Part shown: in pieces, positions 7,689-51,226 of the stretch | How positions within the stretch are numbered: position 1 is the first letter of the stretch | Layout of the letters: each line of letters begins with the position of its first letter | NCBI GenBank assembly: GCA_963756895.1 | Contig: CAVWPI010000006.1 | Coordinates: forward strand, 178,572 to 242,571 | Direction: 5' to 3' | Length of the DNA: 64,000 nt | Source of the DNA: an uncultured Actinomycetes bacterium | Lineage (GTDB): Bacteria > Actinomycetota > Acidimicrobiia > IMCC26256 > DASPTH01 | Translations under genes and position numbers: made by a program | The notes under the pieces: model-generated | Databases searched by the model: none | What the model saw: only the letters and a program-made list of their open reading frames with translations | What the model was told of the DNA's origin: nothing

Positions 7689-7696
7689 GGCGGATC

Positions 7697-7719
7697 CCCT
7701 CGGTCGTGTGACTCGAGGG
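7697..7719 (-). promoter_or_regulatory. Possible 5-prime-UTR hairpin overlapping the P450 ribosome-binding site
   Basis: On the mRNA strand: CCCTCG-aGTCACACGAC-CGAGGG, followed by gGATCCGCC-ATG. The 3-prime arm is the only purine-rich SD-like element (GAGGGG) before ATG 7688. Confidence 0.25.
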
Positions 7720-7765
7720 CGACGATACGGACCCGACGCCCAGACCGCAACGTGTCGGGCGCGGG

Positions 7766-8149
7766 TCAGCTGGGCACTACGGGATCGGGTTCGTTCACGA
7801 GCCGCGAGACGAGCTGGCGCGAGATGCCGAACGTGCGCCCGATGTCGGCGAGGGTCTGGCCCTCCGAGTGCAGCAGCTGGAACAGCAGGCGCTGCGCGTC
7901 GTGCCGGCTGCGTTCCAACTCGGCGAGCGCGTCGCCCAGGCTCGCCCGCAACGGTTGCGGCTCCGTGATCCGTTCCAGATCGGCGAGCGGGCGCCCGCTC
8001 TCCACCAACTTGCGCGTGATGTCGCGCGCGTCGCGCGTCTCCTCCAGGACGGTGATCGTGCGCTCGCTCGCGGACTGCACCTGGTCGAGCGCGTTCAGGT
8101 AGCGCAGACGAAGCTGCTCGTCCTCGGTACTGGTGACGTCAGTGCTCAT
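7766..8149 (-). CDS. Small DNA-binding protein with C-terminal helix-turn-helix (sigma-70 region 4-like)
   Basis: Intact 127-aa ORF with a predicted helical N-terminal part, then ...GQTLADIGRTFGISRQLVSRLVNE, a typical HTH. Confidence 0.55.
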   Translation of the reverse strand: MSTDVTSTEDEQLRLRYLNALDQVQSASERTITVLEETRDARDITRKLVESGRPLADLERITEPQPLRASLGDALAELERSRHDAQRLLFQLLHSEGQTLADIGRTFGISRQLVSRLVNEPDPVVPS

Positions 8150-8227
8150 GCGCCCATTCTCGCGAACGACAGCGCCGCGGCACCGGCCCCTTACGGCCCA
8201 CGGCGCGCAACCGCGGTGGCGCGGTCG

Positions 8228-8834
8228 TCAGCGCGCGCGAATGCCGTCGAGCACGAACCCGAACAGACGCTCTGCGGTGTCGGGATCGTCGCTCTCTTCA
8301 GCCGCCAACGTGACTGCCTGCACCATCCGGACGAGGTCGTCGATGTCGACGCCGTCGCGCATCTGACCCGCGGCCTGAGCCCGAGCGAGCAGCGCGGCAC
8401 CGGCCCGGCGCATCGACTCGCACGCCGACGGCTCGTCGCGATCGGCGAGCATCGTGAGCATCGCCTCCGCGGCGAGACCTCGACAGGTGGCGGCCTGTTC
8501 GAGCTGCGCGTGCAGCCAGACTGCGAGGGCCTCGCCGGGCACGTCGGAAGCGAGCAGCTCTTCGGCCAGCGCCTGCAGTTCGTCGATGCGGTCGTGGAAC
8601 ACCGCCTCCACCAGGTCGTCGCGCGTCGGGAAGTGCCGGTAGAGCGTGCCGATGCCGACACCGGCGCCGCGGGCGATCTCCTCCAAGCGAGGCGTCGGCG
8701 CCGCGCGCCGCGAACACCTGGCTCGCGGTCTCCACGATGCGGGCCCGGTTGCGCACCGCGTCGGCGCGGGGCCGGCGGACGGCAGGGATCGGGAGGGCGG
8801 CGGGGGTCGGAATGGTGGAGCTGCGAGCGGTCAT
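8228..8834 (-). pseudogene. TetR/AcrR family transcriptional regulator; one frame break near 8690
   Basis: MTARSSTIPTPAALPIPAVRRPRADAVRNRARIVETASQVFAARGADASL / EEIARGAGVGIGTLYRHFPTRDDLVEAVF... The break lies at cttggagg. Divergent from the MFS gene. Confidence 0.8.
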
Positions 8835-24621: not shown

Positions 24622-26521
24622 GTTCGGGGGCCGTGACCACGAAGTCGTCGAGCACAGGTTCCCGGGTCATGCGCCAGTAGTCGATGAGCTTCCACGGCAT
24701 GTTGGTCGTCACCCGGCCGGCGTCGTTGTTGTAGTAGCTGTGCACGCGCGGATGCCTCCACACGAGATGCTCGTGCTCGGCGTCGACGCGTTCGTTGTAG
24801 GCGTCGTGCACGTCGCTCCTGCACTCCATGGTGGACCACCCGTGCTCGAGCATGGCACCGATCGCCTTGACGACGTAGTTGACCTGGCATTCGAGCACGA
24901 ACACCACGCTCCCGACCACCGGGTTGGTGTTCGGTCCGTAGAGGCAGAACAGGTTGGGGAAGCCGGGCATCGTGATCCCCACGTGCGCGCGTGGATCGTC
25001 GCCCCACTCCTCGGAGAGGACCCGGCCCCCTCGGCCGGTGATGGTCATCGGCCAGAGGTACTTGTTGGGATGGAACCCGGTGCCGAGGACGAGCACGTCG
25101 ACGCTCGCGGCGCTCGCCCGACTCGCTGACCACCGCGTGGGGCTCGACCCGGACCACGCGCTCGTTCACCAGGTCGACGTCGTCGCGCAGCAGCGTGCGG
25201 AACCAACCGTTGTCCTGCAACATGCGCTTGCCCAGCGCCGGGTAGTCGGGCAGCACTTCGGCCACCAGCTCGGGACGATCGGCCAGCTCACGTTCGACGT
25301 GGGCGGTCATCACCCGGCGGATCTTGTCGTTCTGCCGGCTGATCGACACGTCGGTGTCGGGCCAGTCGGGGTCGGCCCGGAACGCGGAATACATCCGGTC
25401 GGCGCTGTTCCAGAACTGCAGCACCCGGTACCACGCCAGGTAGTGCGGCACCGTGCGGAACAGCCACTTCTCCTGGTCGGTGACCGGCCGGTGGTAGTCG
25501 GGGTTGGGCAGGACCCAGTGGCGCGACCGCTGGAAGATCGTGACGTCCGCGGCGTCGGGCGCCACCGCGGGCACGAACTGCATCGAGCTGGCACCGGTGC
25601 CGACCACCGCGATCCGCTTGCCGTGCATGTCGACGTCGTGGTCCCAGCGGGAGGAGTGGAAGGACGGGCCCGCGAAGGTGTCGAGGCCCTCGATGTCGGG
25701 CACCGCCGGACGGTTGAGCATCCCGACCGCGCTCACGAGCGCGTTGACCGTGATCTCCGACTCGCCCGTGCCGTCTCGGAGGCTGACGAGCCAGGAACCC
25801 GCGCCTCGTCGAAGGTGGCCGAGCGCACCTCAGTACCGAACCGCACGTGCGGCAGGACGTTGTGCTCCTTGGCGCAGCTCGCGATGTAGTCGAACAGCTC
25901 GTGCTGGCACGCGTAGAAGTGCGACCAGTCGGGGTTGGGCCGGAACGAGTACGAGTAGAAGTGGTTGGGCACGTCGACCCGGAGATCGGGATAGGTGTTC
26001 TCGAACCACGTCCCGCCGACGTCGGGGTTCTTGTCGAACACCGTGTACGGGATCCCGGCCTGCTCGAGGCGGATCGCTGCGCACAGGCCGCCGAGCCCGG
26101 CGCCGATGATGCCCACGTGGAAGCGCGCCAGCGTCTCGTCGTCCGGGCGCTCGATCCACTCGAATCGCCGACGGTCGGCGCCGTCGAAGTCGGCCTCCTC
26201 CTCGACCAGCGCGACGTACGAGGCGTCGACCGTTTCGCCGACCGCGAACTCGATCAGCCGGTGCATCTCGGCGGCGTCGGGTCGACGTTCGGATGCGGCG
26301 TCGGGCAGGCCGGTGAGCGTGTCGAACGCCCACGCCCGGATCGCCTCGGCGTCGTCGGCGGTGAGCGATCCCGGACCCCGCCCGTGGTCGAAGGTGCGCG
26401 GCTCGGGATGCGCGTCGACCACCGACAGGTCGCCGCTCAGGTGGGCCACCGCGGCAACGAGCACGGCGAGGTTGGCCGCGGGCAGCGCGGCCGCGAGCTC
26501 CCCCGCGTCGATCCGGTTCAC
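24611..26521 (-). pseudogene. Type I Baeyer-Villiger (flavin-containing) monooxygenase with ~135-aa N-terminal extension; 2 frame breaks (near 25790 and 25100)
   Basis: MNRIDAGELAAAL...FHVGIIGAGLGGLCAAIRLEQAGIPYTVFDKNPDVGGTWFENTYPDLRVDVPNHFYSYSF... / ...LDTFAGPSFHSSRWDHDVDMHGKRIAVVGTGASSMQ... / MLVLGTGFHPNKYL...NLFCLYGPNTNP... The BVMO fingerprint FxGxxxHxxxW[P/D] and two GxGxxG motifs are present. Confidence 0.8.
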
Positions 26522-30352: not shown

Positions 30353-31538
30353 ATGACGACACGACCTCTCGACGGGATCAAGGTTCTCGACCTGTCCCAG
30401 GTCGTCTCCGGTCCGATCTGCGGGAGGATGCTCGCCGACCTCGGCGCCGACGTGGTGAAGCTCGAACCCCCCGGCGGCGACATCATCCGCTTCCTCCAGC
30501 CCAAGGTGGGCGACGACCCGGTCAGCGTCTACTTCACGTGGGTCAACGCAGGGAAGCGCTCCGTGTCGCTCGACCTGAAGACCGAGCGCGGTGCCGCGCT
30601 CGCCCGCGAGCTCGCGCTGGCGAGCGACGTCGTGCTCGAGAACTTCCGTCCCGGCGCGCTCGCGCAGTACGGACTCGACCACGAGTCGCTCCTGGCGGCG
30701 AAGCCGAGCTTGATCTACTGCTCGATCAACGGCTGGGGCGGCGACAACTCCTGGTCCCAACGGCACGCGTACGCGGCCATGGTGCAGGCGGAGGTGGGTC
30801 GCGTCGAGCTCGACGCCCGGCTGCGCGAGGCGCCGCCCGAGCAGAGCCCCCACGTCGACGGTGACATCACTCCCGGCCTCCTCGCCGCGACCGCCGTCGT
30901 GAGCGCGCTGTTCCACCGCGCACGCACGGGTGAGGGCCAGCACCTCGACGTGTCGATGGCCGAAGCGCTCGTGTACACCGACGAGTGGACCTCGACCGAT
31001 CTCGCCGGGTACGAGGGGCCGCGAATCCCCGACACGTGGAACTACCCGATCTTCCGCGTCGCCGACGGCACCGACGTCGCGTTCATGGGTGACCCGACCG
31101 GCCGACTGGTCGAGATCGCCGCCGCCATCTCCGACGACGTGGTCGAGCCCACGAAGTCAGCGCGAGGAGGCCTGGCGGGTCCTCGCCGAACTCGTCGCGC
31201 GCGTGCCCGACTTCCCCACGCTCGAAGCGCGCTTCGACCTCTTCGGCTTCCTCGTGTCCGAGGTGCGCACCGTCCGACAGCTCGCGGAAACGCCGTGGGC
31301 GGAGGAGCGGGGCGTGTTCGTGGAGGTGGAACCGGGAGCGCGCGTCGCCGGTGCGCCGTTCCACTCCGACCGGACGACCATCGGGGTGCGCGGCCCGGCC
31401 CCTCGGTTTGCCCACCACACGCGTGCCGTGCTGGCCGAGCGCTGCGGGCTCTCCGACGACGAGCTCACACAGCTCGAGGCCGACGGCGTCATCCATTCCA
31501 CCGGCGACATCGACACCGCCCGTCCCGACTGGAGGTAG
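30353..31538 (+). pseudogene. Family III CoA-transferase (CaiB/BaiF type); one frame break near 31150
   Basis: MTTRPLDGIKVLDLSQVVSGPICGRMLADLGADVVKLEPPGGD...VLENFRPGALAQYGLD...GEGQHLDVSMAEAL... / ...EEAWRVLAELVARVPDFPT...APFHSDRTTIGVRGPAPRFAHHTRAVLAE... Confidence 0.8.
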
Positions 31539-31562
31539 CGGGACACCGCAAGCTCGTTCGCG

Positions 31563-32024
31563 TCAGGGAGTGACGTCCAGGTGCATTCGTGTTCCGGGCG
31601 CGAACTGGGTCGGAACCTCACGGTCGGCGACGAACCCGACGGCGTCGTAGAAATCGAGTGCGTGCGAGTTTGCCGTGACCTCGATCCGGCTGGACCCACC
31701 GGCTCGGACCAGTGACACCGCATCGAGCACGAGCGCGCGAGCGACACCTCTGCGCATCCGATCAGGGTCGACGAACAGATCGTCCAACTCGGCGACGTCG
31801 CCAGCCGGAGTCGTGGTTGCGAACCCCACGACGCGACCATCTTCGACCGCGACCCGGGTGCGGCCCTCGAGGATCGACCCGATCTCGAACACCAGCACCT
31901 CGGGATTGGCCGACAATGCGTCTCGATCGCCCACGTTCGACAGCGAGGACCGTCGATAGACATCGCTGATCACTTCGAAGTCGCTCACGTCGGCACCGCG
32001 GATGAGGAAGTCGTTCATGCGCAC
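31563..32024 (-). CDS. GNAT family N-acetyltransferase
   Basis: Intact 153 aa: ...RVVGFATTTPAGDVAELDDLFVDPDRMRRGVARALVLDAV...ANSHALDFYDAVGF... Confidence 0.75.
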   Translation of the reverse strand: MRMNDFLIRGADVSDFEVISDVYRRSSLSNVGDRDALSANPEVLVFEIGSILEGRTRVAVEDGRVVGFATTTPAGDVAELDDLFVDPDRMRRGVARALVLDAVSLVRAGGSSRIEVTANSHALDFYDAVGFVADREVPTQFAPGTRMHLDVTP

Positions 32025-32052
32025 AGATCGCCTGGTCCGGCGGAGCCCGCCG

Positions 32053-32397
32053 TTAGAGCGCCTGGTACAGGGTGAACAGTCCGACCGGGCTGCCGGCCAT
32101 CTGGGCCCGGAGGTCCTCGCTCAGGTCACCGAGGAGCTCGCCGCTGACCGCCCCCGTCGCCATGATCGACTCCATGAGGGGCGCCATGTTCTCCGAGTGC
32201 AGGATCAGCGCGTCGGCGTCGCGGAACCGCTCGAGGACGATGCACTCGGACTCGTCGGCGTTGAAGTAGGTGTCGTACTGCAGCGTGCCCACGTCCTTCG
32301 CTCGCACGATGTCCAGGCACTCGGCGGAGAGCCGCTTGAACTCCTCGACCTTGTCGGCGTGGAACGTGAATCGAACGATGCCCCGAAGCTCACCCAT
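32053..32397 (-). CDS. ABM-domain (antibiotic-biosynthesis-monooxygenase-like, dimeric alpha/beta barrel) protein
   Basis: ATG 32397 with GAAGGAGA upstream. MGELRGIVRFTFHADKVEEFKRLSAECLDIVRAKDVGTLQYDTYFNADESECIVLERFRDADALILH... Confidence 0.55.
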   Translation of the reverse strand: MGELRGIVRFTFHADKVEEFKRLSAECLDIVRAKDVGTLQYDTYFNADESECIVLERFRDADALILHSENMAPLMESIMATGAVSGELLGDLSEDLRAQMAGSPVGLFTLYQAL

Positions 32398-32504
32398 GCT
32401 GGTCTCCTTCGTCGGAACGGCCCCGCTGGCCGCCTTCACGGAGTGGACGGAACCGAAGTGTGGTTCTCGACACGCATCGCCGATGTTTCGTCCCCGGGCC
32501 GCGC

Positions 32505-33446
32505 TCAGGTCACCCCGTAGCGGTTCGCTTCGACCCAGCCGCGCGCCGTGCCCGTCCATCCCGTCACCCGCGCGTCGGCCAGGATGCGCCAGTAGAGCCA
32601 GTGCTCGGGCTCCTCGCACGTGTGGGCCATGTCGAAGCTGATGCTCGGTGACGCGGGCACGAGCTCCACCTCGAGCTCGTCGCCCTCGGCGGTCGAGAAC
32701 CGCAGGCGCGCCGGCGCCATGGTGCGGGCGCGGTCGTCGTAGTCGATGGCGCCGCCGATGCATCGCACCGGTCGTACGCCGGACGCGTCGCGCAGGTAGC
32801 CACCGCCGCGCTCGGAGAGCTGGGGCGCGCCGACGAAGTAGAGCTGCGCGCCCTCCGACTGGAGGTCGCCGAGGGTGAACGTCACCCGCCAGTTGCGCGG
32901 GCCCCACGAGCGGTCGCGATGGCCGGCGGCGCGCACGCGATGCGTCTCGCCGCCGATGGCGACGGTGCCGCTGACCGCCATGGACTGCTCGAAGCGGCTC
33001 GCCGGATACTGCTCGCTGCCGAGGTCGTTGCCCGTCCCGGTGCCGAACACCTCGGTCGTGGGCGTCGCGGTGAGATCGAGCGCGATCGGCACGAACCCGC
33101 CGGCGCCGGGACCGGTGATCTCACGCACGACGCCGCGATAGGTGAAGGTCGCCGCCGGCTCAGCGGCCTGATCATCGGGACACCAGCCGAAGTGCAGGCC
33201 GTAGCGGTCGTACGCCATGGCGTCGGCGAGGTCGAAGTCGTCGAAGCGGAGTCGGGTCTCCTCGGTGCCGAACCACGTGCCGTCGTGGAACACGTACGAC
33301 CAGATGAGCGCCCGTTCCTGGTTGGGGAGCAATCCGAGGCGGAAGAACCCGGCGGGACCGCCGTCGAGGTCGATCCACGAGAAGTACCACGACTCGTTCC
33401 ACGACCACACCGCGGGGTCGAACGGATGGACGTGTTCGTCGTTCAC
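32505..33446 (-). CDS. Conserved hypothetical protein, same family as 4622-5753 (WYF...RDRSWG motifs)
   Basis: GTG 33446 overlaps the kinase stop (GTGA). VNDEHVHPFDPAVWSWNESWYFSWIDLDGGPAGFFRLG...RVRAAGHRDRSWGPRNW... 313 aa, intact. Confidence 0.55.
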   Translation of the reverse strand: MNDEHVHPFDPAVWSWNESWYFSWIDLDGGPAGFFRLGLLPNQERALIWSYVFHDGTWFGTEETRLRFDDFDLADAMAYDRYGLHFGWCPDDQAAEPAATFTYRGVVREITGPGAGGFVPIALDLTATPTTEVFGTGTGNDLGSEQYPASRFEQSMAVSGTVAIGGETHRVRAAGHRDRSWGPRNWRVTFTLGDLQSEGAQLYFVGAPQLSERGGGYLRDASGVRPVRCIGGAIDYDDRARTMAPARLRFSTAEGDELEVELVPASPSISFDMAHTCEEPEHWLYWRILADARVTGWTGTARGWVEANRYGVT

Positions 33447-34448
33447 CGGGCCTCTTCCACCACTGACTCCCACAGCGGGAGGAGGCCCTGGTGGTCCTCC
33501 GAGAACGAGTCGGGTGGGCCCCACATCACGCTCGCCCGCGTCGCGGTGACGACGATGACGGTGGCGGCGAACGCCATCCAGTAGTCGAGGTCGACGAGCT
33601 CGCGCCCGGTCGCCGCGCTCCAGCGCGCCCACGTCTCGTCCTCCGACGGCAAGCCTGGCAATCGCGTGGTGTGTCCGTGCGAACGCTCGAGGAAGAGGCT
33701 GTACCCGATGTCGCCGGTCGGGTTGCCGACGTAAGCGACCTCGAAGTCGACCAGCGCGGCGACGTCGGAGCCGTCGACGATCGCGTTCACCAACCGGGCG
33801 TCACCCATGCACAACGCCGAGCGGTTCCTCGGCCGACGGCGGCACGTTGGCGACCAACCAGTCGAACACTGCGAGGTGTCTCGGCACCATCGTGTCGTCG
33901 ATGACCGCCAGCAGCGCCGCGCGCCAGTAGCCCAGCACGTCGAGCGCGCCGCACGGCCCGTCGTAGGCGGTCGCCAGTGCGCCGAGTTCGACGCGGTGCA
34001 CCGCGGCGAGCGCGTCGAGGAAGGAATCCCACGTGGCGCGCTGCGCGGCGGCGCCGGCGTCGAGGAACCAACCGTCGTGGTACGCGTTGGGCCAGGCGTC
34101 GGGCACACTGCGACCTTCGACCCATTCCATGACGAAGCACGGGCGACCGACCGCCCGGGTGCCCTGATCGATCGCCACCACGGCCGGCACCGGCGCACCG
34201 GCGCGACCCAACGCATCGACCACGCGCGCTTCCCGGCACGGATCGAGGTCGTGCACGATGCTCGGCACCCGGGGCGCCTTGAGCACCATGTGGCGCGGAC
34301 CATCGGGAGTGTCGGCGACGATCCGCCACGCACCGTTCGCGTGTCCCTGGGGCAGGAGCTCGAGCTCCACCCGCTCGATCGGCTGTCCGATGGCGTCGCT
34401 CAGCCACCCCTGCAGGACGTCCGGATCGATGACCTCGGTCGCGGTCAC
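33443..34448 (-). pseudogene. Phosphotransferase (APH/choline-kinase-fold) family protein; one frame break exactly at the HG|D catalytic motif (near 33805)
   Basis: VTATEVIDPDVLQGWLSDAIGQPIERVELELLPQGHANGAWRIV...RHMVLKAP...PCFVMEWVEGR...EEPLGVVHG / DARLVNAIVDGSDVAALVDFEVAYVGNPTGDIGY... GTGA overlap with the SDR stop. Confidence 0.75.
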
Positions 34449-35236
34449 ACGCTGCCGATCCAGGTGCCGGCGTCGTTGATCAGCACCTGGCCGGTCATCT
34501 TGGAGCTCTCGTCGGCGGCGAGGAACAGCACCACCCCGGTCATGTCCTCGGGCTCCAGCGTCGAGTTCAACACCGACGTCTCCCGCAACGAGTCGACGAT
34601 CGCGCCGGGCACGACCGCCTTGGTCGCCGCCGACATGGTGACGCCCGGACACACTGCGTTGACCCGGATGTTCCGCGAGCCGAGCAGCTGCGCCATCGTC
34701 TTGGTCTGGCGGATGATCATCCACTTCGTCATGCCGTAGCCCTCGGGTGCGAGCGTCGGTGCCGGCGCGTCGTCGGGCATCTGGAACAGCATGGGCAGCG
34801 ACAGCGGGAACGCCGCGTTCGACGAGATGTTCACGATCGACCCGCTGCGCTGCTCCCAGAGGTACGGCAGCACGCCGTTCGACGCGTGGATGATCCCCAT
34901 GAAGTTCACCGCGAGGAAGTCGTCCCACGTCGCGGTCAGCTGGTCGAACATCAGGCCGGCGTTGTTCACCAGGACGTCGACGCGCCCCAACGTGTCGACA
35001 ACCTGCTTCCCCATCGCCGCCATCTGCTCGCCGTCGCTCACGTCGGCCTCGATCACGAGCGCGCGGCGGCCGAGCGCCTCGATGTCGTCCTTGACCGGAC
35101 CGGCCTGGTCGATGCGCTTGAGATCGATGACGGCGACGTCCGCGCCCTCACGCGCCAGTGCCCGTGCGTACGCCGCGCCGATGCCCTGCGCGGCACCGGT
35201 CACGATGCAGACCTTGCCCTCGAGTCGATCCCCCAC
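34445..35236 (-). CDS. Short-chain dehydrogenase/reductase (SDR)
   Basis: GTG 35236 with GAGGGGGA upstream. KVCIVTGAAQGIGAAYARALAREGADVAVID...LVNNAGL...YGMTKWMI... 263 aa. Confidence 0.8.
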   Translation of the reverse strand: MGDRLEGKVCIVTGAAQGIGAAYARALAREGADVAVIDLKRIDQAGPVKDDIEALGRRALVIEADVSDGEQMAAMGKQVVDTLGRVDVLVNNAGLMFDQLTATWDDFLAVNFMGIIHASNGVLPYLWEQRSGSIVNISSNAAFPLSLPMLFQMPDDAPAPTLAPEGYGMTKWMIIRQTKTMAQLLGSRNIRVNAVCPGVTMSAATKAVVPGAIVDSLRETSVLNSTLEPEDMTGVVLFLAADESSKMTGQVLINDAGTWIGSV

Positions 35237-35274
35237 TGGTTCCCCCTCGCGCCGTCGTCTGGAATGGCCACGCC

Positions 35275-35303
35275 TTGACACGGCGACGATACATCTGACA
35301 TTT
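35275..35303 (+). promoter_or_regulatory. Weak candidate promoter (TTGACA-N17-ACATTT) in the divergent SDR/oxidoreductase intergenic region
   Basis: TTGACA at 35275-35280 and ACATTT at 35298-35303, in the only AT-richer patch of the 139-bp spacer, ~70 nt upstream of ATG 35376. Confidence 0.25.
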
Positions 35304-35375
35304 TGCCGACGCCGGGCGAGCCCGCACCCGCTCGACACACCGGCTCGCCGGATGTCCGGACCCTGGAGGCCCCGC

Positions 35376-36447
35376 ATGCCAACCTCACCCGTGCGCGTGG
35401 CCGTGTGGTCCACCGGCGGCATCGGCACCATCGCCATCGGCGCCATCCAGCGTCGACCCGACCTCGAGCTCGTCGGCGTGTGGGTGCACAGCCCCGAGAA
35501 GGAGGGGCGCGACGCGGGCGAGCTCGCCGGCATCGACCCGATCGGCGTTGCCGCGACCAACGACGTCGACGCCATCCTCGGCGCCGGCGTCGACTGCGTC
35601 GTCTACGCGGCGCAGGGTCCGGAGCAGGACGCGGCGTCGGTGCCCGACTACGTCGAAGCTGCTGTCGGCGGGGGTCAACGTGTCGACCACGAGCTCGTGG
35701 GCGTTGCTCCACCCGTCGACCTACGAGCCCACCTGGCGGGCGCAGCTCGAGGCAGCCGCCACCGAGGGCGGCGCATCGCTCTACGCCACCGGCATCGAGC
35801 CGGGCTTCGCCGCCGACCAGCTCCCGCTCCTGCTCACCACCATGTCGAACTCGATCACGTCGATCCGGGCGTCGGAGATCGCCATGTACGACACCTACCC
35901 GGTGGAGTTCATGATGAAGGAGGTCATGGGCTTCGGGAAGCCGATCGACGACGAGAACGCGATGCTCGGCCTCCCCGGGTCGATCCTCTCGGCGTGGGCG
36001 CCCGGCATCAACCTCATCGCCGACGCGCTCGGCGCGCAGCTCGACGGCATCCGCGAGGAGTTCGACCGCGCCGCCACCCCGCGCACGCTCGAGGTCGCGT
36101 GCGGCACCCTCGAGGCGGGCACGGTCGGCGCGATCCGCACGCAGGCCATCGGCGTGGTCGACGGGCGCGATGCGATCGTGATCGAACACGTGAACCGCAT
36201 GGCCGCCGACATCGCCCCCGAATGGCCGACCGCGTCGCGGGACGGCATGTACCGCATCACGATCGAGGGCGATCCCGACATCATCTGCGAGATGGCCGCG
36301 GGCGACCCCGAGCACTCGAGCCCGGGCGCGATGGTCGCGACCGCGATGCGCGCGGTGAACGCGGTCCCCTACCTGGTGGACGCGGCGCCCGGTTTGCGCA
36401 CCGCACTCGACCTGCCCATCACTGCACCGAAGTACGCGTTCTCGTGA
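35376..36447 (+). pseudogene. NAD(P)-binding oxidoreductase with dihydrodipicolinate-reductase-like N-terminal domain; one frame break near 35655
   Basis: MPTSPVRVAVWSTGGIGTIAIGAIQRRPDLELVGVWVHSPEKEGRDAGELAGI...CVVYAAQGPEQDAASVPDYV / KLLSAGVNVSTTSSWALLHPS...ATGIEPGFAADQLPLLL... Paralogue of 54298-55332. Confidence 0.65.
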
Positions 36448-37265
36448 GCGAGCTGTTCTCGATCCATCCCGACGTGAAGGTCACGGCCGACGGCCACGTC
36501 ACCACCGTCACCATCGACCGTCCCGACACCAAGAACGCGTGCACCGGCGACATGTGGGTCGCCGATCGGCGAGACGTTCCGCCGCCTCGCCTACTCGGGC
36601 ACGCGCGTCATCGTCCTCACCGGTGGCGGCACCGACTTCTGCGCCGGCGCCGACCTGAGCGGGAGCGGCGCCAGCTGGTTCCGGCGGTGGCAGCTAGCAG
36701 CGGACCGATGGGCAACCAGCTCGCCGGGATGCGGGTGCTCGGTGACGCGGTCGTGGCGGTGCACGGATGCCCCGTGCCCACCATCGCACGCGTCGACGGC
36801 GTCGCGGTCGGTGCCGGCTTCGGCCTCTCGCTGGCCTGCGACCTCACGGTGTGCTCCGATCGGGCGCGGTTCTCGGCCATCTTCGCCAAGCGCGGCATCA
36901 GCCTCGACTTCGGCACCTCGTGGTTGCTCCGCCAGCGCATCGGTGTGCACCGGGCCAAGGAGCTCGCACTCACCGCGCGCATGGTGCACGGCCCCGAGGC
37001 GTTCGACCTCGGCCTGGTCAACCGCGTGGTGCCCGCCGACGAGCTCGACGCCGCCACCGCGGAGTTCGCCGACGCCATCGCCGGTGGACCGCCGCTCGCG
37101 TTGTCGATGACCAAGCGCGAGCTCGACAACGCCGGGACGTCGTCGTTGGCACAGGCGCTCGAGACCGAAGCGCTGGCGCAGAGCGTCAACGTGGGCACCG
37201 AGGACATCCGGGAAGCGCTCACCGCGTACGTCGAACGACGCCCGCCGGAGTTCAAGGGCCGGTGA
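36444..37265 (+). pseudogene. Enoyl-CoA hydratase/isomerase (crotonase); ORF stays open but ~36 codons (about 36565-36675) are read in the wrong frame
   Basis: GTGA overlap with the upstream stop. VSELFSIHPDVKVTADGHVTTVTIDRPDTKNACTGDMWVA. The expected IGETFRRLAYSGTRVIVLTGGGTDFCAGADLSGSG exists only in the adjacent frame. The reading then returns to ...MGNQLAGMRVLGDAVVAVHGCPVPTIARVDGVAVGAGFGLSLACDL... Confidence 0.75.
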
Positions 37266-39031
37266 GCAACGACAGCGAGTGGTCGCTGACGCGCGTCTTC
37301 GACGTCGTCGGCGCGGCGATCCCCGACCGCGAGATGGTCGTGTGGGGCGACGTGCGCCGCACGTTCGGTGACGCGCTGGCCCGCGCCGACGCCCTCGCTG
37401 CACACCTGCAGGTGCAGGGCTTGGGGCTGCATCGCGAGCGCGCCGACCTGCGCGAACTGGGAGTGCGGCCAGGACCGCGTCGCGGTGCTGATGCACAACC
37501 GGCCCGAGCACATCGAGACCATCCTCGCGTGCTGGCGGGCGCGCGCCGTCCCGTGCAACGTCAATTACCAGTACACCGCAGCCGAGATCGCCGAGCTGTT
37601 CCGCATGCTCGGTACGCGTGGCGTGGTGTACGAGCGCGGACTCGCGCCACTGCTGCGCGACGCGCTCGCCGAGCTCGGAGGCGAGTCGACGCTTCTGGTC
37701 GAGCTGGACGACGGCAGCGACGAAGCGTCGATTCCCGGCGCGGTCGACTTCGAGGCGATCGTCGCGGCCGGGGGCCACGTCGAGGACGACACGTCGCCCG
37801 ACGACATCTACATCGCGTGCACCGGCGGCACGACGGGACGCCCGAAGGCGGTGCTGTGGCGTCAGGGCGACCTGTTCGTCGCCGCCATCGGCGGGAGCGA
37901 CGACGCCGACGAGGCGACGATCCGCTCCCGCGCCGAGGCCGGCGCCGGCGTGTGGTTCCCGACGTCGCCGCTGATGCACGTCGCCGCGCAGTGGACGGTG
38001 TTCCTCGCCGCGAGCATGGGCGCCACCGTCGTGCTGCACGACGACCGCAAGCGCTTCGACGCGCCGCACCATCCTCGCCACCGCGGCACGCGAGCGCGCG
38101 AACATGATGACGATCATCGGCGACGCGTACGCGCGGCCCTTGATCGAGGAGCTCCAACGCACGCCCTACGACCTCTCGGCGCTCGCCGTGCTCGGCACCG
38201 GCGGGACGCCCACGAGCGGGGGCGCAAAGGACGCGCTGCTCGGAGCTCCTGCCGAACGTCACCATCCGCGACGGCTACGGCGCGTCGGAGATCGGGGTGA
38301 TGGGCTCGGGCGACCAGAGCGGCCGCGTCGCCCAGACCCAGCGCTTCCAGGTCATCCCCTCGGCGCGCATCCTCGCCGACGACCGCACCCGCTTCCTCTC
38401 GCCGAACGAGACCGAGGTCGGGTGGATCGTGCGCACCGGGCACGTCCCACTCGGCTATCTCGACGACGAGGCCGCGACCAACGCGACGTTTCCCGTCGTC
38501 GAGGGCCAGCGGGTCGCGGTCGCTGGCGACCGCGCGCAGTACACCGACAACGGCGAGGTCGTGCTGCTCGGCCGCGACTCTCTCGTGGTGAACACCGGTG
38601 GCGAGAAGGTGTTCGTCGAAGAGGTCGAGGACGTGTTGAAGCGCCACGATGCGGTCGTCGACGTGCTGGTCACCGGCCGTCCCGACGACCGATTCGGTCA
38701 GGAGGTCGTCGCCGTCGTCCAGCTCACCAGTCCCGACGCCGCCTCGCCCGGCGACCTGCGTGCCTGGTGCGGCGATCACCTCGCCCGGTACAAGGCGCCC
38801 CGCGCCGTCGTGTTCGTCGACGAGGTCCGCCGGCACCCGAGCGGCAAGGCCGACTACCGCTGGGCGAAGGAGCGTGCGGGCGAAGCGGTCGACGCCACGA
38901 ACACCGGCCGACTCGCCCGCCGGGCAGAATGGGCCGCATGGACGGCAACCTGCTGGTACGGGGCGGCGACCTGGTCGACGGGACCGGTGCGCCAGCACGC
39001 CGGGCCGACGTGCGCGTGCACGACGGCCTGA
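37262..39031 (+). pseudogene. Acyl-CoA synthetase (ANL family); at least 3 frame breaks, 3-prime end unresolved
   Basis: GTGA overlap. VSNDSEWSLTRVFDVVGAAIPDREMVVWGDVRRTFGD / ...DRVAVLMHNRPEHIETILACWRARAVPCNVNYQYT...YIACTGGTTGRPKAVLWRQGD...PLMHVAAQW / ...MMTIIGDAYARPLIEEL... / ...IRDGYGASEIGV...VVNTGGEKVFVEEVE...YKAPRAVVFVDEVRRHPSGKADY... No stop occurs in any frame near 38900-38940. As assembled the frame ends at 39031, overlapping the next gene. Confidence 0.75.
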
Positions 39032-40664
39032 TCACCGAGGTCGGCTCCGACCTCGCGCCCGACGGCGAGCGCGTCGTCGACGCCACGGGCGCGTTCGTGG
39101 CGCCCGGTCTGATCGAGTCGCACACGCACTTCGACGCCGCGGTGTGGTGGGACCCCGACTGCGACCCGATGCCCGCGCACGGTTGCACCACGTTGGTGAT
39201 GGCGAACTGCGGCCTCGGGCTGGCGCCGCTGCGCGCCGCCGATCGCGACACGATCGTCGAGCTGTTCTCGTTCATCGAGGACATCCCGGCCGAGGCGTTC
39301 CGGCTCGCGGTGCCGTGGACGTGGGAGACCTACGGCGAGTACCGCGCCGTCGCCTCCCGGCACGGCACCGCGGTCAACACCGTCGGGTTCCTCCCCCACC
39401 AGCTGCTGCGCACGTGGGTGATGGGCGACGCGGCGTGGGAACGACCGGCGACCGTCGACCGAGCGCGAGCAGCTCTGCGCGGTGCTCGACGATGCGCTCG
39501 CAGCGGGCGCGCTCGGGCTGTCGACCTCGGTGATGGACACCGACCGCGACAACCGACCGGTGCCGAGCCGCCAGGCCGACGACGCCGAGTTCGCGGCGCT
39601 CGTCGGCGTGCTCGCCCGCCGACGGCGCCACGCTGCAGTACGTCCCGCGCATCCGCCAGCCCGAGTTCCTCGCCGACATCGAACGCGTGGTCGCAGATGA
39701 CGCGCGGCGCCGGACGTGCCGCTGCTCGTCGCCGGCTACCAGCTCGAGGAGAGCGTGGCCGACGCCCGCAAGGAGCTCGACGCGTTCCTCGCGCCCTACT
39801 GGGACGCGGGCGTGCCGCTGTGGGTGAACTACAGCGTGCGGCCGTCGCACGTGAACATGCACTTCGAGCGCTCGATCATGTGGAGCGGCGTACCGGCGTG
39901 GCACGAGCTCGCCAACGCGCGCCCCGACGACCAGCGCGCCTGGCTCGCCGACCCGTCGTGGCGCGAACGGGCGAGACGCGACTGGGATGCCTGCACCTAC
40001 ACGCTCGTACCGATCCGCGGGCCCGAGCGACTCCTGCTCATGGGCGGCGCGCACAGCGGCGAGTCGCTCGCCGACGCCATGGCCCGCACCGGCGCGCACC
40101 CGTCGGATGCGCTCGCCGACTGGCTGCTCGCCACCGACCTCACCGGGTACATCCGCACGTCGCACCGCGCCGATCGACGACACCGCCGCGGTCGACGTCC
40201 TGCTCGCACCGTTCACGCTGTCGGGCGCCAGCGATGCCGGCGCGCACGTCCAGATGTTCAGCGGTGCCGGCGACGCCACCTACCTCCTGGCACACCTGGT
40301 GCGCGACGTCGGCACGCGTCTCGGTCGAGGAAGCGGTGCACGCGCTCACGGCCAAGCAGGCGCGCTTCTTCGGCATCCCCGACCGCGGCGTCGTGCGCCC
40401 GGGCGCGGTCGGCGACCTCGTGGTGTTCGCGCTCGACGAGCTCGAGCCCGGCGACGAGGTGCCGCGCACCGACCTGCCCGGGCGACGCGTGGCGCTACGG
40501 CCGCACCCCCGGCGGCTACCGGGCGACGATCGTGGCCGGCGAACCGACCTGGCTCGACGGCGCCGCCACCGGCGCCCGGCCGGGCACGATGCTCGAGCGC
40601 GGCTCAGCCGCGGCGACGGGCGCGATCGGCAGCTCGAGGTACGCCGCGCACGGTGCTGGTGTAG
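38929..40664 (+). pseudogene. D-aminoacylase-like amidohydrolase (N-acyl-D-amino-acid deacylase family); about 6 frame breaks, 3-prime end uncertain
   Basis: MGRMDGNLLVRGGDLVDGTGAPARRADVRVHDGLITEVG...GAFVAPGLIESHTHFDAAVWWD... / LDDALAAGALGLSTSVMDTD... / ADGATLQYVPRIRQPEFLADIERV / PLLVAGYQLEES...WVNYSVRPSHVNMHF... / ...LSGASDAGAHVQMFSGAGDATYLLAHLVRDV / VSVEEAVHALTAKQARFFGIPDRGVVRPGAVGDLVVF / ...GGYRATIVAGEPTWLDG... Confidence 0.7.
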
Positions 40665-41810
40665 AGCGGCACCGCGTGCTCGCGGTCGACCGTCCACTCC
40701 GGCCATCGCTTGAGCGTCTCCTCCACACCGATGCGACCTTCCATGCGCGCCGAGCGCGGCACCCAGGCAGAAGTGGATGCCGTAGCCCAACGTCATGTGC
40801 AGGTCGAAGTCGCGGTGGATGTCGAACGTGTCGGGGTCGGGGTAGGCGCGCTCGTCCCGTCCCGCCGCGCCGGTCACCAGCACCACCTTCGATCCGGACG
40901 GGATGGTGACGTCGTGCAGGGTCACGTCGCGCGTGGTGAAGCGGGCGTTGACGGGAGACGGCGGCTCGTACCGCAGGCTCTCCTCCACCGCGTTCGCCAC
41001 CAGCGCGGGGTCGGCGGCGAGCTCGGCGCGCTGGTCGGGGTGGCGGTCGAGCAGGTCGATCGACCACCCGAGATGCCGGGCGACGGTCTCGGTGCCGGCC
41101 GAGAACAGCACGGTGACGAACTCGGTGAGCTCGGAGTCGGACAGGCGCCGCGAGGTGCCGTCGTCGTCGACGATCTCGGCCTCGAGCAGGTCGGTGAACA
41201 TGTCGTCGCGCGGGTGGCGCTTGCGGTCCTCGAACTGCTCGGCGAGGTAGCGGTTGATCTCGACCAGCGCGTTGACCGACACGTCGTTCACCATCCCGAC
41301 GGCACCCTCCTCGATGTGGAAGATGTCGTCGACGACCTTGCGGAGGTAGTCGCGATCGCCTTCGGGCACGCCGAGCAACATCGAGATCATCGTGGGTGGG
41401 AGGACGGCGGAGAAGTCCTGCACGTAGTCGAACTGCGCTTCCCCCACGTGCGGGTCGAGCAGCTCGGCGCAGACCTCGCGCATGCGGTCCTCGAGCGACG
41501 ACACCCGCCGCGCCGTGAACGCGCGCGACACCAACTTCCGCAGGCGCGTGTGCTTCGGCGGGTCGGTCCAGATGATCATCCCCGTGTCGACATGCGGCTG
41601 GTCGGACATCATCTCGACCGTCGTGCCGTGCGACGAGACGTACGTCTCGTGGTCCTTGTTGGCGGCTTCGACGTCGTGGAACCGGGTGAGGGCCCAGAAG
41701 TCGTAGCGGTCGTTGTGCCAGACGGGCGTCTCGTCGCGCATCCGCTTCCAGAGCGGATACGGGTCGTTCCGCAGCTCGGGCGTGAACGGATCCCAGTACA
41801 CGTCGCTCAT
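40604..41810 (-). pseudogene. Cytochrome P450; at least one frame break near 40745
   Basis: MSDVYWDPFTPELRNDPYPLWKRMRDETPVWHNDRYDFWALTRFHDVEAA...IIWTDPPKHTRLRKLVSRAF...LFSAGTETVARHLG...LGYGIHFCLGAAL / ARMEGRIGVEETLKRWPEWTVDREHAVPLYTSTVRG... Paralogue of 50008-51226. The C-terminal ~12 aa are uncertain. Confidence 0.8.
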
Positions 41811-41919
41811 GGTTGCTCCCCCAGGACGGCTGGCCGCACTCTACCGACGGGAGCGGAGCCAGGCCAGGAGATGTGTAGAGCTTTGTCGGATACAGTCCCG
41901 CGTGACGAGGGGGACCGAA

Positions 41920-49156: not shown

Positions 49157-50011
49157 TCAGCGGGGAGTGTCGCCGGCGAGGGTGATCCGGTGCATGCGGC
49201 GGGTGAAGCCGTGGTAGTCGTTGATCGGGTTGTGCATCGCGCAGCGGTTGTCCCACAACGCCAGTGACCCGACCTCCCATTGGAAGCGGCACGTGAGCTC
49301 GGGACGGACCGAGTGCTGGAAGAGGTACTCGAGCAACGGGCGGCTCTCGTCCTCGGTCATCTCCGCGAACGATGCGGTGTGCGCCCGGTTCACGTAGAGC
49401 GCCTTGCGTCCGGTCTCCGGATGGGTGCGCACGACCGGGTGCGTCGAGAGGAACTGCTGCTCGTCCTCGGCCGGTCCGCGGTCGCGGATGCGGTCCTCCC
49501 GGGTCTTCGACACGTCGGCGAGCGCGGAGCTGTTGACCGCGTCGAGCTCCCCGAGCACTGCGCGCAACCCCGGCGAGAGCGCCTCGTACGCCGCGTACAT
49601 GTTGGCGAACATCGTGTCGCCGCCGAACGGCGGGAGCTCGCGCGCCAGCAGCATCGTGGCCATCGGCGGCTGTTCGAGGTACACGGTGTCGCTGTGCCAG
49701 ATCCCACCGAAGTTCACCGTCTCGTGCGGAAGCTTGGCGACCTCGATGATCTCCGGGTGGGTGTCGAATCCCTTGACGAACGGGTAGCGCACCGGCTCGC
49801 CCAGTCGACGGGCGAAGGCGAGGAACGCGTCGTCGTCGAGCTCTTGATCGCGGAAGAACACGACGAGGTGCTCCAGCCAGATCCGTCGGATCTCGGCGAC
49901 GGTCGCGTCATCGAGATCCGCCAGATCCACGCCTCGGATCACCGCGCCGATCGCGCCGGCGAGCGGCTCGACCTCCAGGGAGGCGAGGTGCGTCGAGGTC
50001 GCTGCGCTCAC
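49157..50011 (-). CDS. TauD/TfdA family Fe(II)/2-oxoglutarate-dependent dioxygenase
   Basis: GTG 50011 overlaps the P450 stop (GTGA). ...FGGIWHSDTVYLEQPPMATMLLAREL...GDTMFANMYAAYEAL...LWDNRCAMHNPINDYHGFTRRMHRITL: HxD...H...R motif set. Confidence 0.8.
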   Translation of the reverse strand: MSAATSTHLASLEVEPLAGAIGAVIRGVDLADLDDATVAEIRRIWLEHLVVFFRDQELDDDAFLAFARRLGEPVRYPFVKGFDTHPEIIEVAKLPHETVNFGGIWHSDTVYLEQPPMATMLLARELPPFGGDTMFANMYAAYEALSPGLRAVLGELDAVNSSALADVSKTREDRIRDRGPAEDEQQFLSTHPVVRTHPETGRKALYVNRAHTASFAEMTEDESRPLLEYLFQHSVRPELTCRFQWEVGSLALWDNRCAMHNPINDYHGFTRRMHRITLAGDTPR

Positions 50012-51226
50012 CGCACCCTCATGGGCACCGACTTGTATCCGCGCACGGTGGCGGTGTGCACGAACTCGAGGCGCGACTCGTCGATCTCCCACCTGGGGTA
50101 GCGCTTCAGCGTCTCGGCCAGCGCCACTCGCGTCTCCATCCGTGCCAGCGCGGCGCCGATGCAGAAGTGCGCGCCGTACCCGAACGCGAGCTGACGGTCG
50201 ATGTCGCGCCGCACGTCGAAGACGTCGGGGTCCGGGAAATGACGCTCGTCACGGTCGGCGGCCCCGTTGAGCAGGGAGATCTTCGAGCCGGCGGGGATCG
50301 TGATCCCGTGGTACTCGGCGTCACGCGCCACCCAACGCGACTGCGTGGGTGACGGCGCCTCGAACCGCATGAGCTCCTCGACCGCGTTGCTCATCAGCGA
50401 CGGGTCGTCGAGCAGCAGCTGCCGTTGGTCGGGGAACCGCTGCAACGTGACCACGCCGAACCCGAGCAACCGGGCCACGGTCTCGGTCCCCGCCGACGAG
50501 ATCAGCTGCACGAACGCGAGGATCTCCTCGAGCGTCAGCTTGCGGGTCTCGCCGTCGTCCTCGATCTCCGCGTGCACCAGGCCGGTGAGCAGGTCGTCCT
50601 GCGGGTCCTTCAGGCGCATCTCCATGAGCTCGGGGATCATGGCGAAGGCGTCGTTGTTGATCTCGCCGTTCTCGTTGACGATCTGGCGGTTCTTCTGACC
50701 GTGCGTGGTGGTCGCGCCTTCGTCGACGTGGAGGCTCTGGTCGGTGAGCTCCTTGAACTCCTTGGCGTGCCCCTCGGGGTAGCCGACCAGGGACAGGATC
50801 ACGGTGGGCGGCAACAGACCGGCGAAGTGCTCGACGTAGTCGAACTCGTCCTCACCCTCGACCGCGTCGAGGAACTCGTTCGCGAGGGCGGCGATCTTCA
50901 CCTCGATGTCGGCGATGCGGCGAGGCGTGAACGCCCGCGCCACGAGCTTGCGCAGCTTCGTGTGGTCCGGGGGGTCCATCATGATCATCATCGGGATGCC
51001 GTAGGGCTCGTCGGTGATGATCTCGAGCATGATCCCGTGACTCGAGACGAACGACTCGTGGTCGAGAAGCCCGCGCGAACACGTCGTCGTAGCGACTCAG
51101 GGCCCAGAAGTCGTGCTTCTCGTTGTAATAGACGGGCGCCTCGTCTCGGAGGCGCTGCCAGACCGGGTACGGATCGGCATCGATCACGTAGTCGTAGGGG
51201 TCGTAGTAGACGTCGGTGGCCGTCAT
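50008..51226 (-). pseudogene. Cytochrome P450; one frame break near 51070
   Basis: ATG 51226 with GAGGAG upstream. MTATDVYYDPYDYVIDADPYPVWQRLRDEAPVYYNEKHDFWALSRYDDVFARA / ...LEIITDEPYGIPMMIMMDPPDHTKLRKLVARAF...ISSAGTETVARLLG...FGYGAHFCIGAALARME... Confidence 0.85.

Follow-up and report, generated by a model that had tools for sequence, protein, structure and literature searches.

Sterolibacterium denitrificans removes the tertiary hydroxyl at C25 of the cholesterol side chain in two steps. A kinase, 25-hydroxysteroid kinase (25-HSK), first phosphorylates this alcohol, and a second enzyme, the C-O lyase 25-phosphosteroid lyase (25-PSL), then eliminates the phosphate to leave a delta-24 alkene, so that the net reaction is an ATP-dependent dehydration (PMC7411048, PMC8449060, PMC11061730). 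LvaA/LvaC and ACAD10/ACAD11 follow a similar scheme, in which an APH-group kinase acts on a hydroxyl at a position other than beta to the thioester before phosphate is eliminated (PMC10802472, PMC11342911). In Mycobacterium tuberculosis, Rv3168, a kinase gene, and Rv3169 form an operon that is repressed by Rv3167c and de-repressed in an Rv3167c mutant (PMC5340868). Here, we describe an operon in a 64,000-nucleotide (nt) stretch of DNA from an uncultured actinomycete (assembly GCA_963756895.1, contig CAVWPI010000006.1, positions 178,572 to 242,571; referred to below as the window), which encodes a short-chain dehydrogenase/reductase (SDR), an APH-fold kinase, and a 313-amino-acid (aa) protein of the Pfam family DUF7065. 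Our results suggest that the kinase and the DUF7065 protein probably constitute a two-enzyme module for the ATP-dependent dehydration of some alcohol, with the kinase acting first and the DUF7065 protein following as a phospho-lyase.

The three genes are co-directional on the minus strand, with the SDR gene (34445-35236) followed by the kinase gene (33443-34448) and then by the gene for the 313-aa protein (32505-33446). Both junctions are 4-nt GTGA stop/start overlaps, located at 34445-34448 between SDR and kinase and at 33443-33446 between kinase and 313-aa protein. The coordinates, the strand, and both overlaps were as given in an initial annotation of this DNA. The G+C content of the window is 70%, and a scan of positions 31400-35500 for promoters and terminators found nothing, as expected at such a G+C content.

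The 313-aa protein, for which the initial annotation could name no function, is intact, has a GTG start codon, and carries no signal peptide. It matches DUF7065 (PF23213) with 44.4 bits against a cut-off of 27, and the same domain is present in nearly all of its homologues. DUF7064 (PF23212) was not reported for it at E <= 0.01; that domain is present in homologue P0032 and in remote or fused relatives, with which the C-terminal half of the protein aligns. The sequence includes the motifs DEHVH, WNESWYFSW, LPNQ, RFEQ, and HRDRSWGPRNW (residues 176-186), and within the last of these, none of R177, D178, S180, W181, G182, and R184 varies among 40 close homologues (profile A1). The broader family and the fusion proteins keep the motif as R-D-[RHK]-S-W-G. 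All 167 close homologues are either unnamed or called "hypothetical," and their hosts are uncultured actinomycetes, Frankia/Pseudofrankia, Nocardia, Williamsia, Mycobacterium, and Acidimicrobiia; cultured carriers include, besides Frankia/Pseudofrankia, Nocardia sp. 348MFTsu5.1, Williamsia faeni, and Mycobacterium sp. WUMAC-067. The subfamily is small: when 1.84 billion representatives were searched with the profile, 42 clusters scored E < 1e-30, and 802 scored E < 1e-3. A literature search for DUF7065 and DUF7064 found no paper.

Profile and fold searches nevertheless matched this protein, remotely, to 25-PSL. An AF2 model built with 40 homologues (pLDDT 89) is all-beta and has the two-lobed, AttH-like fold of the solved 25-PSL structures, which were also its best Foldseek matches in the PDB (9fzn, 9g2i, and 9g4c; E 1.7e-10, TM 0.61-0.65). 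The next matches, all of them significant, were AttH NE1406 (2ich), fungal pericyclases, and kievitone hydratase. At the sequence level, the narrow profile A1 reached no PDB sequence; only the broadened profile A3, with the 313-aa protein as its first row, did so, matching 25-PSL over nearly its full length at E 1.5e-19, AttH at 1.4e-7, and kievitone hydratase at 0.35. A comparison by hhalign with 25-PSL and its window paralogue (the product of 4622-5753, described below) gave E 3.6e-5. The NCBIfam model Rv3169_fam (NF053593), the family of 25-PSL, scored 40 bits (E 2.3e-10), below its curated cut-off of 150 bits.

Alignments made with hhalign and MAFFT placed the motifs of the two proteins opposite one another: WNESWYF in the window protein against FYDRYYF in 25-PSL, G..PN against G..PN, RFEQ against RFAQ, and HRDRSWGPR against SRDRSWGVR. 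In 9g4c, which has phosphate and the alkene product bound, the chain departs from that of 9fzn by an Asp-to-Asn change within RDRSWG, which would therefore mark this Asp as functionally critical. Judged by sequence profile and predicted fold, then, the 313-aa protein is a remote homologue of 25-PSL that belongs to a distinct family (DUF7065/DUF7064), whose members occur in aerobic-type actinomycetes and across many further lineages. The initial annotation had proposed, after ACAD10/ACAD11, that a hydroxyl is converted to a phosphate leaving group and then eliminated. That logic stands, although the closest precedent proved to be 25-HSK/25-PSL and not ACAD10/ACAD11, and the eliminating enzyme is most likely the 313-aa protein itself.

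We then asked how consistently the kinase and lyase genes occur together, using 23 genome loci collected via the lyase family. The orthologous kinase gene lies directly upstream on the same strand in 17 of these loci, is divergent and adjacent in 1, lies within 8 kb in 2, and is absent from 3, the two genes thus being immediate neighbors in 18 of the 23. The kinase is also adjacent, in a divergent arrangement, in Nocardia. Across loci, the identities of the two proteins co-vary (r 0.82, p 2e-5). The co-occurrence that the initial annotation envisaged is thus strong for the kinase and the 313-aa protein, whereas an SDR orthologue immediately precedes the kinase in only 7 of the 23 loci, all from the close clade. 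The "three-gene module" is therefore clade specific.

Fusion proteins connect the same domains; we took as evidence only distant proteins of 670-1178 aa. Six of these join an EcKL/APH kinase to DUF7065 and DUF7064, one of them with a C-terminal SCP2 lipid-transfer domain, and three join PPDK_N (with PEP-utilizers) to DUF7065/DUF7064, including one from a Thermoplasmata archaeon. Two "fusions" among close homologues in ENA, P0182 (420 aa, kinase plus DUF7065) and P0195 (484 aa, SDR plus kinase), were discounted, as they span the GTGA overlaps and come from error-prone assemblies; they are probably read-through artefacts rather than true fusions.

The association extends to the wider RDHSWG-type family, for which we examined 80 metagenome loci in a scan with a 10-sequence subset, A3 being too divergent. 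In 33 of these loci, a kinase gene is adjacent to or fused with the family member on the same strand; 29 of these kinases are PPDK_N plus PEP-utilizers proteins (~900 aa) and 4 are APH proteins. In another 6 loci, a kinase is encoded within the flank. Of the remainder, 9 are informative and without a kinase, and 32 could not be judged because their flanks are too short. Seven of the partner kinase open reading frames (ORFs) were confirmed with Pfam. The usual partner in this wider family (loci L035-L110; e.g., L072 640-4241, L090 2338-5912, and L077 2286-5900) is thus the ~900-aa PPDK_N plus PEP-utilizers protein and not an APH kinase, and it is encoded directly upstream of, downstream of, or fused to DUF7065/DUF7064. 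We take this architecture to be that of rifampicin phosphotransferase/PEP synthase. The recruitment of two unrelated kinase folds to one domain argues that the phosphorylated product is the substrate of that domain.

We considered whether the DUF7065 protein might instead work without ATP, as a hydratase, isomerase, or lipid-binding protein of the AttH/CrtC/kievitone hydratase type, with the kinase acting elsewhere or on the product, for example, by trapping a hydration product. The significant fold matches to AttH (2ich), to kievitone hydratase, and to fungal pericyclases, the match of the family profile to AttH, the family members that have no kinase neighbor, and the UniRef label "AttH domain-containing" on one homologue all fit such a role. 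However, both the fold and the sequence searches rank 25-PSL first, 12 orders of magnitude ahead of AttH in the case of the profile search, the corresponding AttH motif (LDREW) keeps only the D and the W, the DUF7065 protein lacks a signal peptide, unlike secreted AttH-type proteins, and two unrelated kinase folds are found fused or adjacent to the family. We therefore regard an ATP-independent role as unlikely, although it is the alternative that best survives.

Several observations weigh against assigning a phospho-lyase activity to the DUF7065 protein and a joint function to the pair. The 313-aa protein is only 15-16% identical to 25-PSL and falls short of the Rv3169-family cut-off (40 versus 150 bits), and the catalytic role suggested for the Asp of RDRSWG derives only from the sequence difference seen in 9g4c. 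Some residues (R36 and E153) are invariant in the DUF7065 family and are not shared by 25-PSL, such that the chemistry could differ and could instead be a substitution, isomerization, or cyclization on the phosphoester. ATP-independent hydratases and pericyclases have the same fold, and we know of no DUF7065 protein that has been biochemically characterized. Genomic context also includes exceptions: there is no kinase neighbor in 3 of the 23 genome loci and in 9 of 48 informative metagenome loci, the family member P0412 adjoins a luciferase-like oxygenase, and the link of the SDR to the pair is restricted to one clade. The kinase and lyase genes are nonadjacent in S. denitrificans itself (PMC8449060).

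The kinase provides a second line of evidence. Its gene has a GTG start codon and encodes 334 aa after the removal of one base, as described below. The N-terminal fragment matches Pfam APH (PF01636) at E 4e-11, with 43.6 bits against a gathering score of 23.2. The initial annotation had read catalytic HGDxxxxN and DFE motifs in this protein. DFE (here the Mg-binding VDFE) and the D and N of the loop were found, but HGD was not: the repaired loop reads CMGDARLVN, in which the catalytic Asp and Asn are retained, as is the Mg-binding Asp of VDFE, and the His of HxDx4N is replaced by Met. The residue at this position is Trp in Rv3168 and 25-HSK.

Against PDB sequences, the kinase matched Rv3168 (3ats; E 1e-19 to 1e-20), 3dxp (5e-15), 25-HSK (9fsg; 1.5e-12), 9o56, and, weakly, ACAD11 (8v3v; E 7e-5). 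In a fold search that used a model of the intact homologue P0121, the top match was 25-HSK (9fsg; E 4.6e-18, TM 0.79), tied with Rv3168 (3ats; E 2e-17, TM 0.79), and 3dxp and the 25-HSK product complex 9ft5 were close behind. Macrolide and aminoglycoside kinases formed a second tier (E >= 5.7e-10, TM ~0.5), separated by a gap of eight orders in E value, and ACAD11 was not among the top 50 fold matches. Kinases of this type are routinely annotated as "aminoglycoside phosphotransferase." A resistance-type APH identity was ruled out for this one, in agreement with the initial annotation, by NCBIfam scores far under the cut-offs (APH(3'), 22.5 versus 205 bits; APH(3')-V, 19.3 versus 450 bits). The kinase is 19-20% identical to 25-HSK. 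Thus, the lyase leads to 25-PSL and the kinase, independently, to 25-HSK, and both point to one characterized two-enzyme system.

The same searches bear on the possibility that the kinase phosphorylates a 4-hydroxyacyl coenzyme A (CoA), as in ACAD10/ACAD11 or LvaA, with elimination by an ACAD-type enzyme encoded elsewhere and the 313-aa protein being unrelated. The chemistry of ACAD10/ACAD11 and LvaA/LvaC is real (PMC10802472, PMC11342911), the neighborhood is rich in enzymes acting on CoA thioesters, the order of SDR then kinase mirrors that of LvaD then LvaA, and, besides the weak match to the ACAD11 kinase domain, the kinase strongly matched 3dxp, which the PDB sequence file names a "putative acyl-CoA dehydrogenase." Set against this, the fold matches are led by 25-HSK and Rv3168, with ACAD11 outside the top 50; the His of HxDx4N is Met; no ACAD gene was found in the operon or its immediate neighbors in the window, the P0004 contig, or locus L001 of a close relative; and the tightly coupled, co-evolving partner of the kinase is a 25-PSL-like protein. 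We consider this scheme improbable. A hydroxyacyl-CoA that served as the substrate of the kinase/lyase pair itself would merge it into the dehydration module that we propose.

The kinase ORF is broken in the window sequence. One extra G at 33817/33818 on the minus strand (CTCGGCG where the frame needs CTCGCG) causes a +1 frameshift that splits the ORF. The break lies five codons before the catalytic loop begins and not, as had been thought, exactly between the HG and the D; the "VVHG*" read there is an out-of-frame translation. In a comparison of DNA and protein, all eight intact homologous loci (8/8) read ...PPSAxxP(P/L/Q)(A/S)LCMGDARLVN in this region, and removal of one G yields a 334-aa kinase, which shares 90% identity with the intact metagenomic homologue P0121 in a full-length comparison. 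An uninterrupted kinase frame is absent from the window sequence and present in all short-read homologues.

Nor is this the single frame break that it had been taken for. Comparison with intact homologues revealed at least nine breaks over ~15 kb of coding sequence, with three in an acyl-CoA synthetase gene, two in a Baeyer-Villiger-type flavin monooxygenase (BVMO) gene, and one each in a DAP_DH-like gene, a CoA-transferase gene, and the kinase gene; three-frame reading indicated about four in the gene at 4622-5753. Examples are located at 25100-25800, 31146-31159, 35644-35672, 37450-38238, and 5343-5674. The rate is ~1 per 1.5 kb, all breaks are single-base indels, there are no in-frame stops or deletions, and the flanking protein identity is 70-90%. 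The nearest genomes are long-read "MFD" metagenome-assembled genomes (MAGs), in which the loci are broken differently, at unshared positions within the same genes, and the short-read metagenome homologues (85-90% identity) are intact. On the strength of the many breaks in the window, the unshared breaks in the MAG relatives, and the intact short-read homologues, the kinase frameshift is most likely an assembly error and not pseudogenization, and the module is therefore probably intact in the organism. The pattern fits error-prone long-read assembly, and any "pseudogene" call in this window therefore needs resequencing.

A genuinely decaying cluster, with a true kinase frameshift and a nonfunctional pathway, would account for the broken kinase ORF and for the many other broken genes in the window. 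It would account less readily for indels that are exclusively of a single base in genes of otherwise high identity, for the different breaks in the MFD relatives, for the intact short-read homologues, and for an SDR and a lyase that are themselves intact and remain translationally coupled to the kinase, and we therefore think decay quite improbable. Least probable is a xenobiotic or antibiotic inactivation pair, in which the kinase would phosphorylate a drug-like alcohol, in the manner of macrolide, aminoglycoside, or rifampicin phosphotransferases, and the second enzyme would make inactivation irreversible: the APH fold, a commonest wider-family partner with the architecture of rifampicin phosphotransferase, and a GNAT gene downstream would fit it, but the resistance models score far below their cut-offs, the macrolide and aminoglycoside kinases are only a distant second tier by fold, the neighbors that are conserved belong to catabolic CoA pathways and include a GntR/FCD regulator, and the GNAT gene does not accompany the pair in other loci.

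Returning to the kinase and phospho-lyase module, we infer its reaction, residue roles, and substrate class, and a role for the SDR, from the homology, fold, motif conservation, gene coupling, and fusions described above. The APH-fold kinase would phosphorylate a hydroxyl of a hydrophobic catabolic intermediate, and the cytoplasmic, all-beta DUF7065 protein would eliminate the phosphate to form a C=C double bond. Within the R-D-R-S-W-G-x-R motif, Arg177 and Arg184 may hold the phosphate and Asp178 may serve as the catalytic base. Suited substrates would be alcohols that lie beyond the oxidation and dehydration steps of ordinary beta-oxidation, such as tertiary alcohols or alcohols remote from the thioester. 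Nonoxidizable tertiary alcohols do arise in branched-chain, terpenoid, and steroid-like catabolism.

The SDR, encoded by the first gene of the operon, is an intact classical oxidoreductase of 263 aa (Pfam adh_short, E 3e-43, 148 bits), and a Shine-Dalgarno-like sequence, GAGGGGGA, lies upstream of its GTG start codon at 35236. The translation contains TGAAQGIG, VNNAG, the catalytic Ser (NISS), and YGMTK, with an unusual insert of ~17 residues between that Ser and YGMTK, at which the Pfam match is split. The sequence VAVIDL suggests NAD(H) rather than NADP(H) as the cofactor. There was no equivalog-level NCBIfam assignment (best model, PRK07774, 189 bits versus a cut-off of 303). The SDR is 84% identical over its full length to its L001 orthologue, and unrelated SDRs adjoin the kinase in one Acidimicrobiales locus and one Mycobacterium locus. 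In the lva operon of Pseudomonas putida, from the work of Rand et al. in 2017, the SDR LvaD reportedly makes the alcohol. In the clade studied here, the SDR could likewise reduce a ketone to the alcohol, as LvaD does ahead of LvaA, or it could oxidize a second, secondary alcohol.

Divergent from the operon, on the plus strand, lies a block of three genes, which were located by tblastn with the L001 proteins and which carry Pfam labels taken from relatives' contigs. They encode a DapB_N/DAP_DH_C-type dehydrogenase (35376-36444), an enoyl-CoA hydratase (36444-37262), and an acyl-CoA synthetase (37274-38905); the dehydrogenase gene has one frameshift, and the synthetase gene has three. These genes are conserved neighbors, which we take only as context for the module. 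A DAP_DH_C-type dehydrogenase gene lies within 8 kb of the kinase/lyase pair in 17 of the 23 genome loci, and other recurring neighbors encode GntR/FCD regulators, Amidohydro_2 proteins, enoyl-CoA hydratases, and acyl-CoA synthetases. The best NCBIfam model for the DAP_DH-like protein is 2,4-diaminopentanoate dehydrogenase, at 140 bits versus a cut-off of 400, and the enzyme possibly carries out amine or ketone chemistry on the substrate of the pair. Downstream of the operon on the minus strand are genes for an ABM-domain protein (Pfam ABM, 27 bits) at 32053-32400 and for a GNAT acetyltransferase (Pfam Acetyltransf_1, 48 bits) at 31563-32024. Neither gene has a counterpart in L001 or the P0004 contig, and the pair occurs elsewhere without them.

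The window as a whole has a lipid/CoA gene context, with acyl-CoA synthetase, enoyl-CoA hydratase, CoA-transferase, thiolase, BVMO, and P450 genes. The five P450 genes of the initial annotation were all found, four by their heme loops and one by Pfam only. The fifth (40140-41840, minus strand; 101 bits) has no in-frame heme-binding loop, probably because of another frameshift near its 3' end. Together with a TauD/TfdA-family dioxygenase (49157-50248, minus strand; 228 bits) and the BVMO (24632-26488, minus strand; two frame breaks), these P450s represent an unusual density of oxygenases. The alcohol acted on by the module could be supplied by the P450 or BVMO oxygenases or by hydration of a branched chain. 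Loci of relatives offer further context. L027 contains Atu/Liu-like genes (ACADs and a carboxyltransferase). In L029 (Mycobacterium sp. WUMAC-067), a gene for a 640-aa protein with a linalool dehydratase/isomerase domain (Ldi, PF18566) at 6719-8641 is divergent from the DUF7065 gene, with genes for a KshA-like Rieske oxygenase and an aldehyde dehydrogenase also nearby, a neighborhood suggesting that the substrates may be tertiary alcohols of the terpenoid or steroid type. The P450s, the BVMO, the CoA enzymes, and the L027 and L029 genes point to branched-chain, terpenoid, or steroid-like CoA-linked catabolism.

A second gene of the window also belongs to this story. The gene at 4622-5753 on the plus strand, which had been described as a second copy of the gene for the 313-aa protein, matched the latter by tblastn at only E 0.27. 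Its product of ~375 aa, encoded with about four frameshifts in the assembly, proved to be an Rv3169-family protein: NF053593 scored 422 bits, and the reconstructed sequence is 94% identical to the intact P0241 and 48% identical to 25-PSL (9fzn; E 2.3e-93). By these sequence matches, it is a bona fide member of the 25-PSL family and a distant paralogue of the lyase of the operon. Pfam has no model for the protein. No kinase gene lies beside 4622-5753 or beside its counterpart in L030, a locus of a close relative, and the flanking genes are a P450 gene (6473-7399) and an Amidohydro_2 gene, in a P450-rich, aerobic-type window. The Rv3169/25-PSL family comprises more than 4,100 clusters at E <= 1e-10.

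Taken together, these results partly confirm the observations of the initial annotation and partly support its interpretation, and they offer a testable function for two Pfam domains of unknown function, DUF7065 and DUF7064, and for the kinase. It is possible, and we suggest it tentatively, that DUF7065/DUF7064 proteins are a widespread and hitherto unrecognized class of phospho-lyases that form general ATP-driven dehydratase modules, paired or fused with two or more unrelated types of kinase, namely APH/EcKL kinases and kinases resembling PEP synthase and rifampicin phosphotransferase. If so, their targets would be alcohols resistant to removal by ordinary metabolism, such as tertiary alcohols of terpenoids, sterol side chains, or branched acyl chains, the chemistry of an anaerobic sterol degrader would be common in aerobic actinomycetes, other bacteria, and archaea, and the SDR-kinase-lyase operon of this actinomycete would be one specialized version. 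ATP-dependent dehydration through a phosphoester has so far been documented in a single anaerobic sterol degrader and, for 4-hydroxy acids, with another lyase fold; it may be a modular and widespread route for the removal of unreactive hydroxyls, and the proteins described here are candidates for the enzymatic conversion of tertiary or remote alcohols to alkenes. The comparison also ties the uncharacterized Rv3168-Rv3169 pair of M. tuberculosis to 25-HSK/25-PSL, which by analogy suggests that this organism dehydrates some lipid or oxysterol alcohol at the expense of ATP and makes an oxysterol or lipid role directly testable.

Among the known systems, the class III/IV lanthipeptide synthetases use the same concept of phosphorylation and elimination (PMC10604976), but their lyase fold is unrelated and their substrates are peptides, such that they are an analogy only. 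AttH (NE1406, 2ich), CrtC/kievitone hydratase, and the pericyclases CghA, Fsa2, and Phm7 have the same two-lobed beta fold as the DUF7065 protein. Homology to AttH is detectable in the C-terminal half, with the motif partly kept (LDREW, only D and W), but these proteins are not linked to ATP or to a kinase, and their scores are far weaker than those of 25-PSL. The step from LvaD to LvaA parallels that from SDR to kinase in the window, whereas the eliminating enzyme of LvaA/LvaC and ACAD10/ACAD11 has a flavin ACAD fold for which the operon has no gene, the His of their HxDx4N motif is not kept in the window kinase, and the similarity of that kinase to ACAD11 is weak (E 7e-5).

The Rv3168-Rv3169 and 25-HSK/25-PSL systems also differ from the operon. 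The Rv3168-Rv3169 operon has the same order, kinase then lyase, and the loop of Rv3168 has the GDAR..N pattern of the window kinase. Rv3169, however, belongs to the family of 25-PSL, for which the lyase of the operon scores 40 bits against a cut-off of 150, and the Rv3169-family gene of the window (4622-5753), unlike Rv3169, has no adjacent kinase gene. The 25-HSK and 25-PSL genes are unlinked in S. denitrificans, whereas the window genes are translationally coupled; identity is 15-20% for either window protein, and the window lyase belongs to DUF7065 and not to Rv3169_fam. S. denitrificans uses an anaerobic Mo-hydroxylase pathway, whereas the host of the window is a high-G+C actinomycete with P450 and BVMO oxygenases. 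What 25-HSK (9fsg, 9ft5) and 25-PSL (9fzn, 9g2i, 9g4c) have in common with the window pair is the combination itself, an APH-fold kinase together with an all-beta, AttH-like enzyme that carries the RDRSWG motif.

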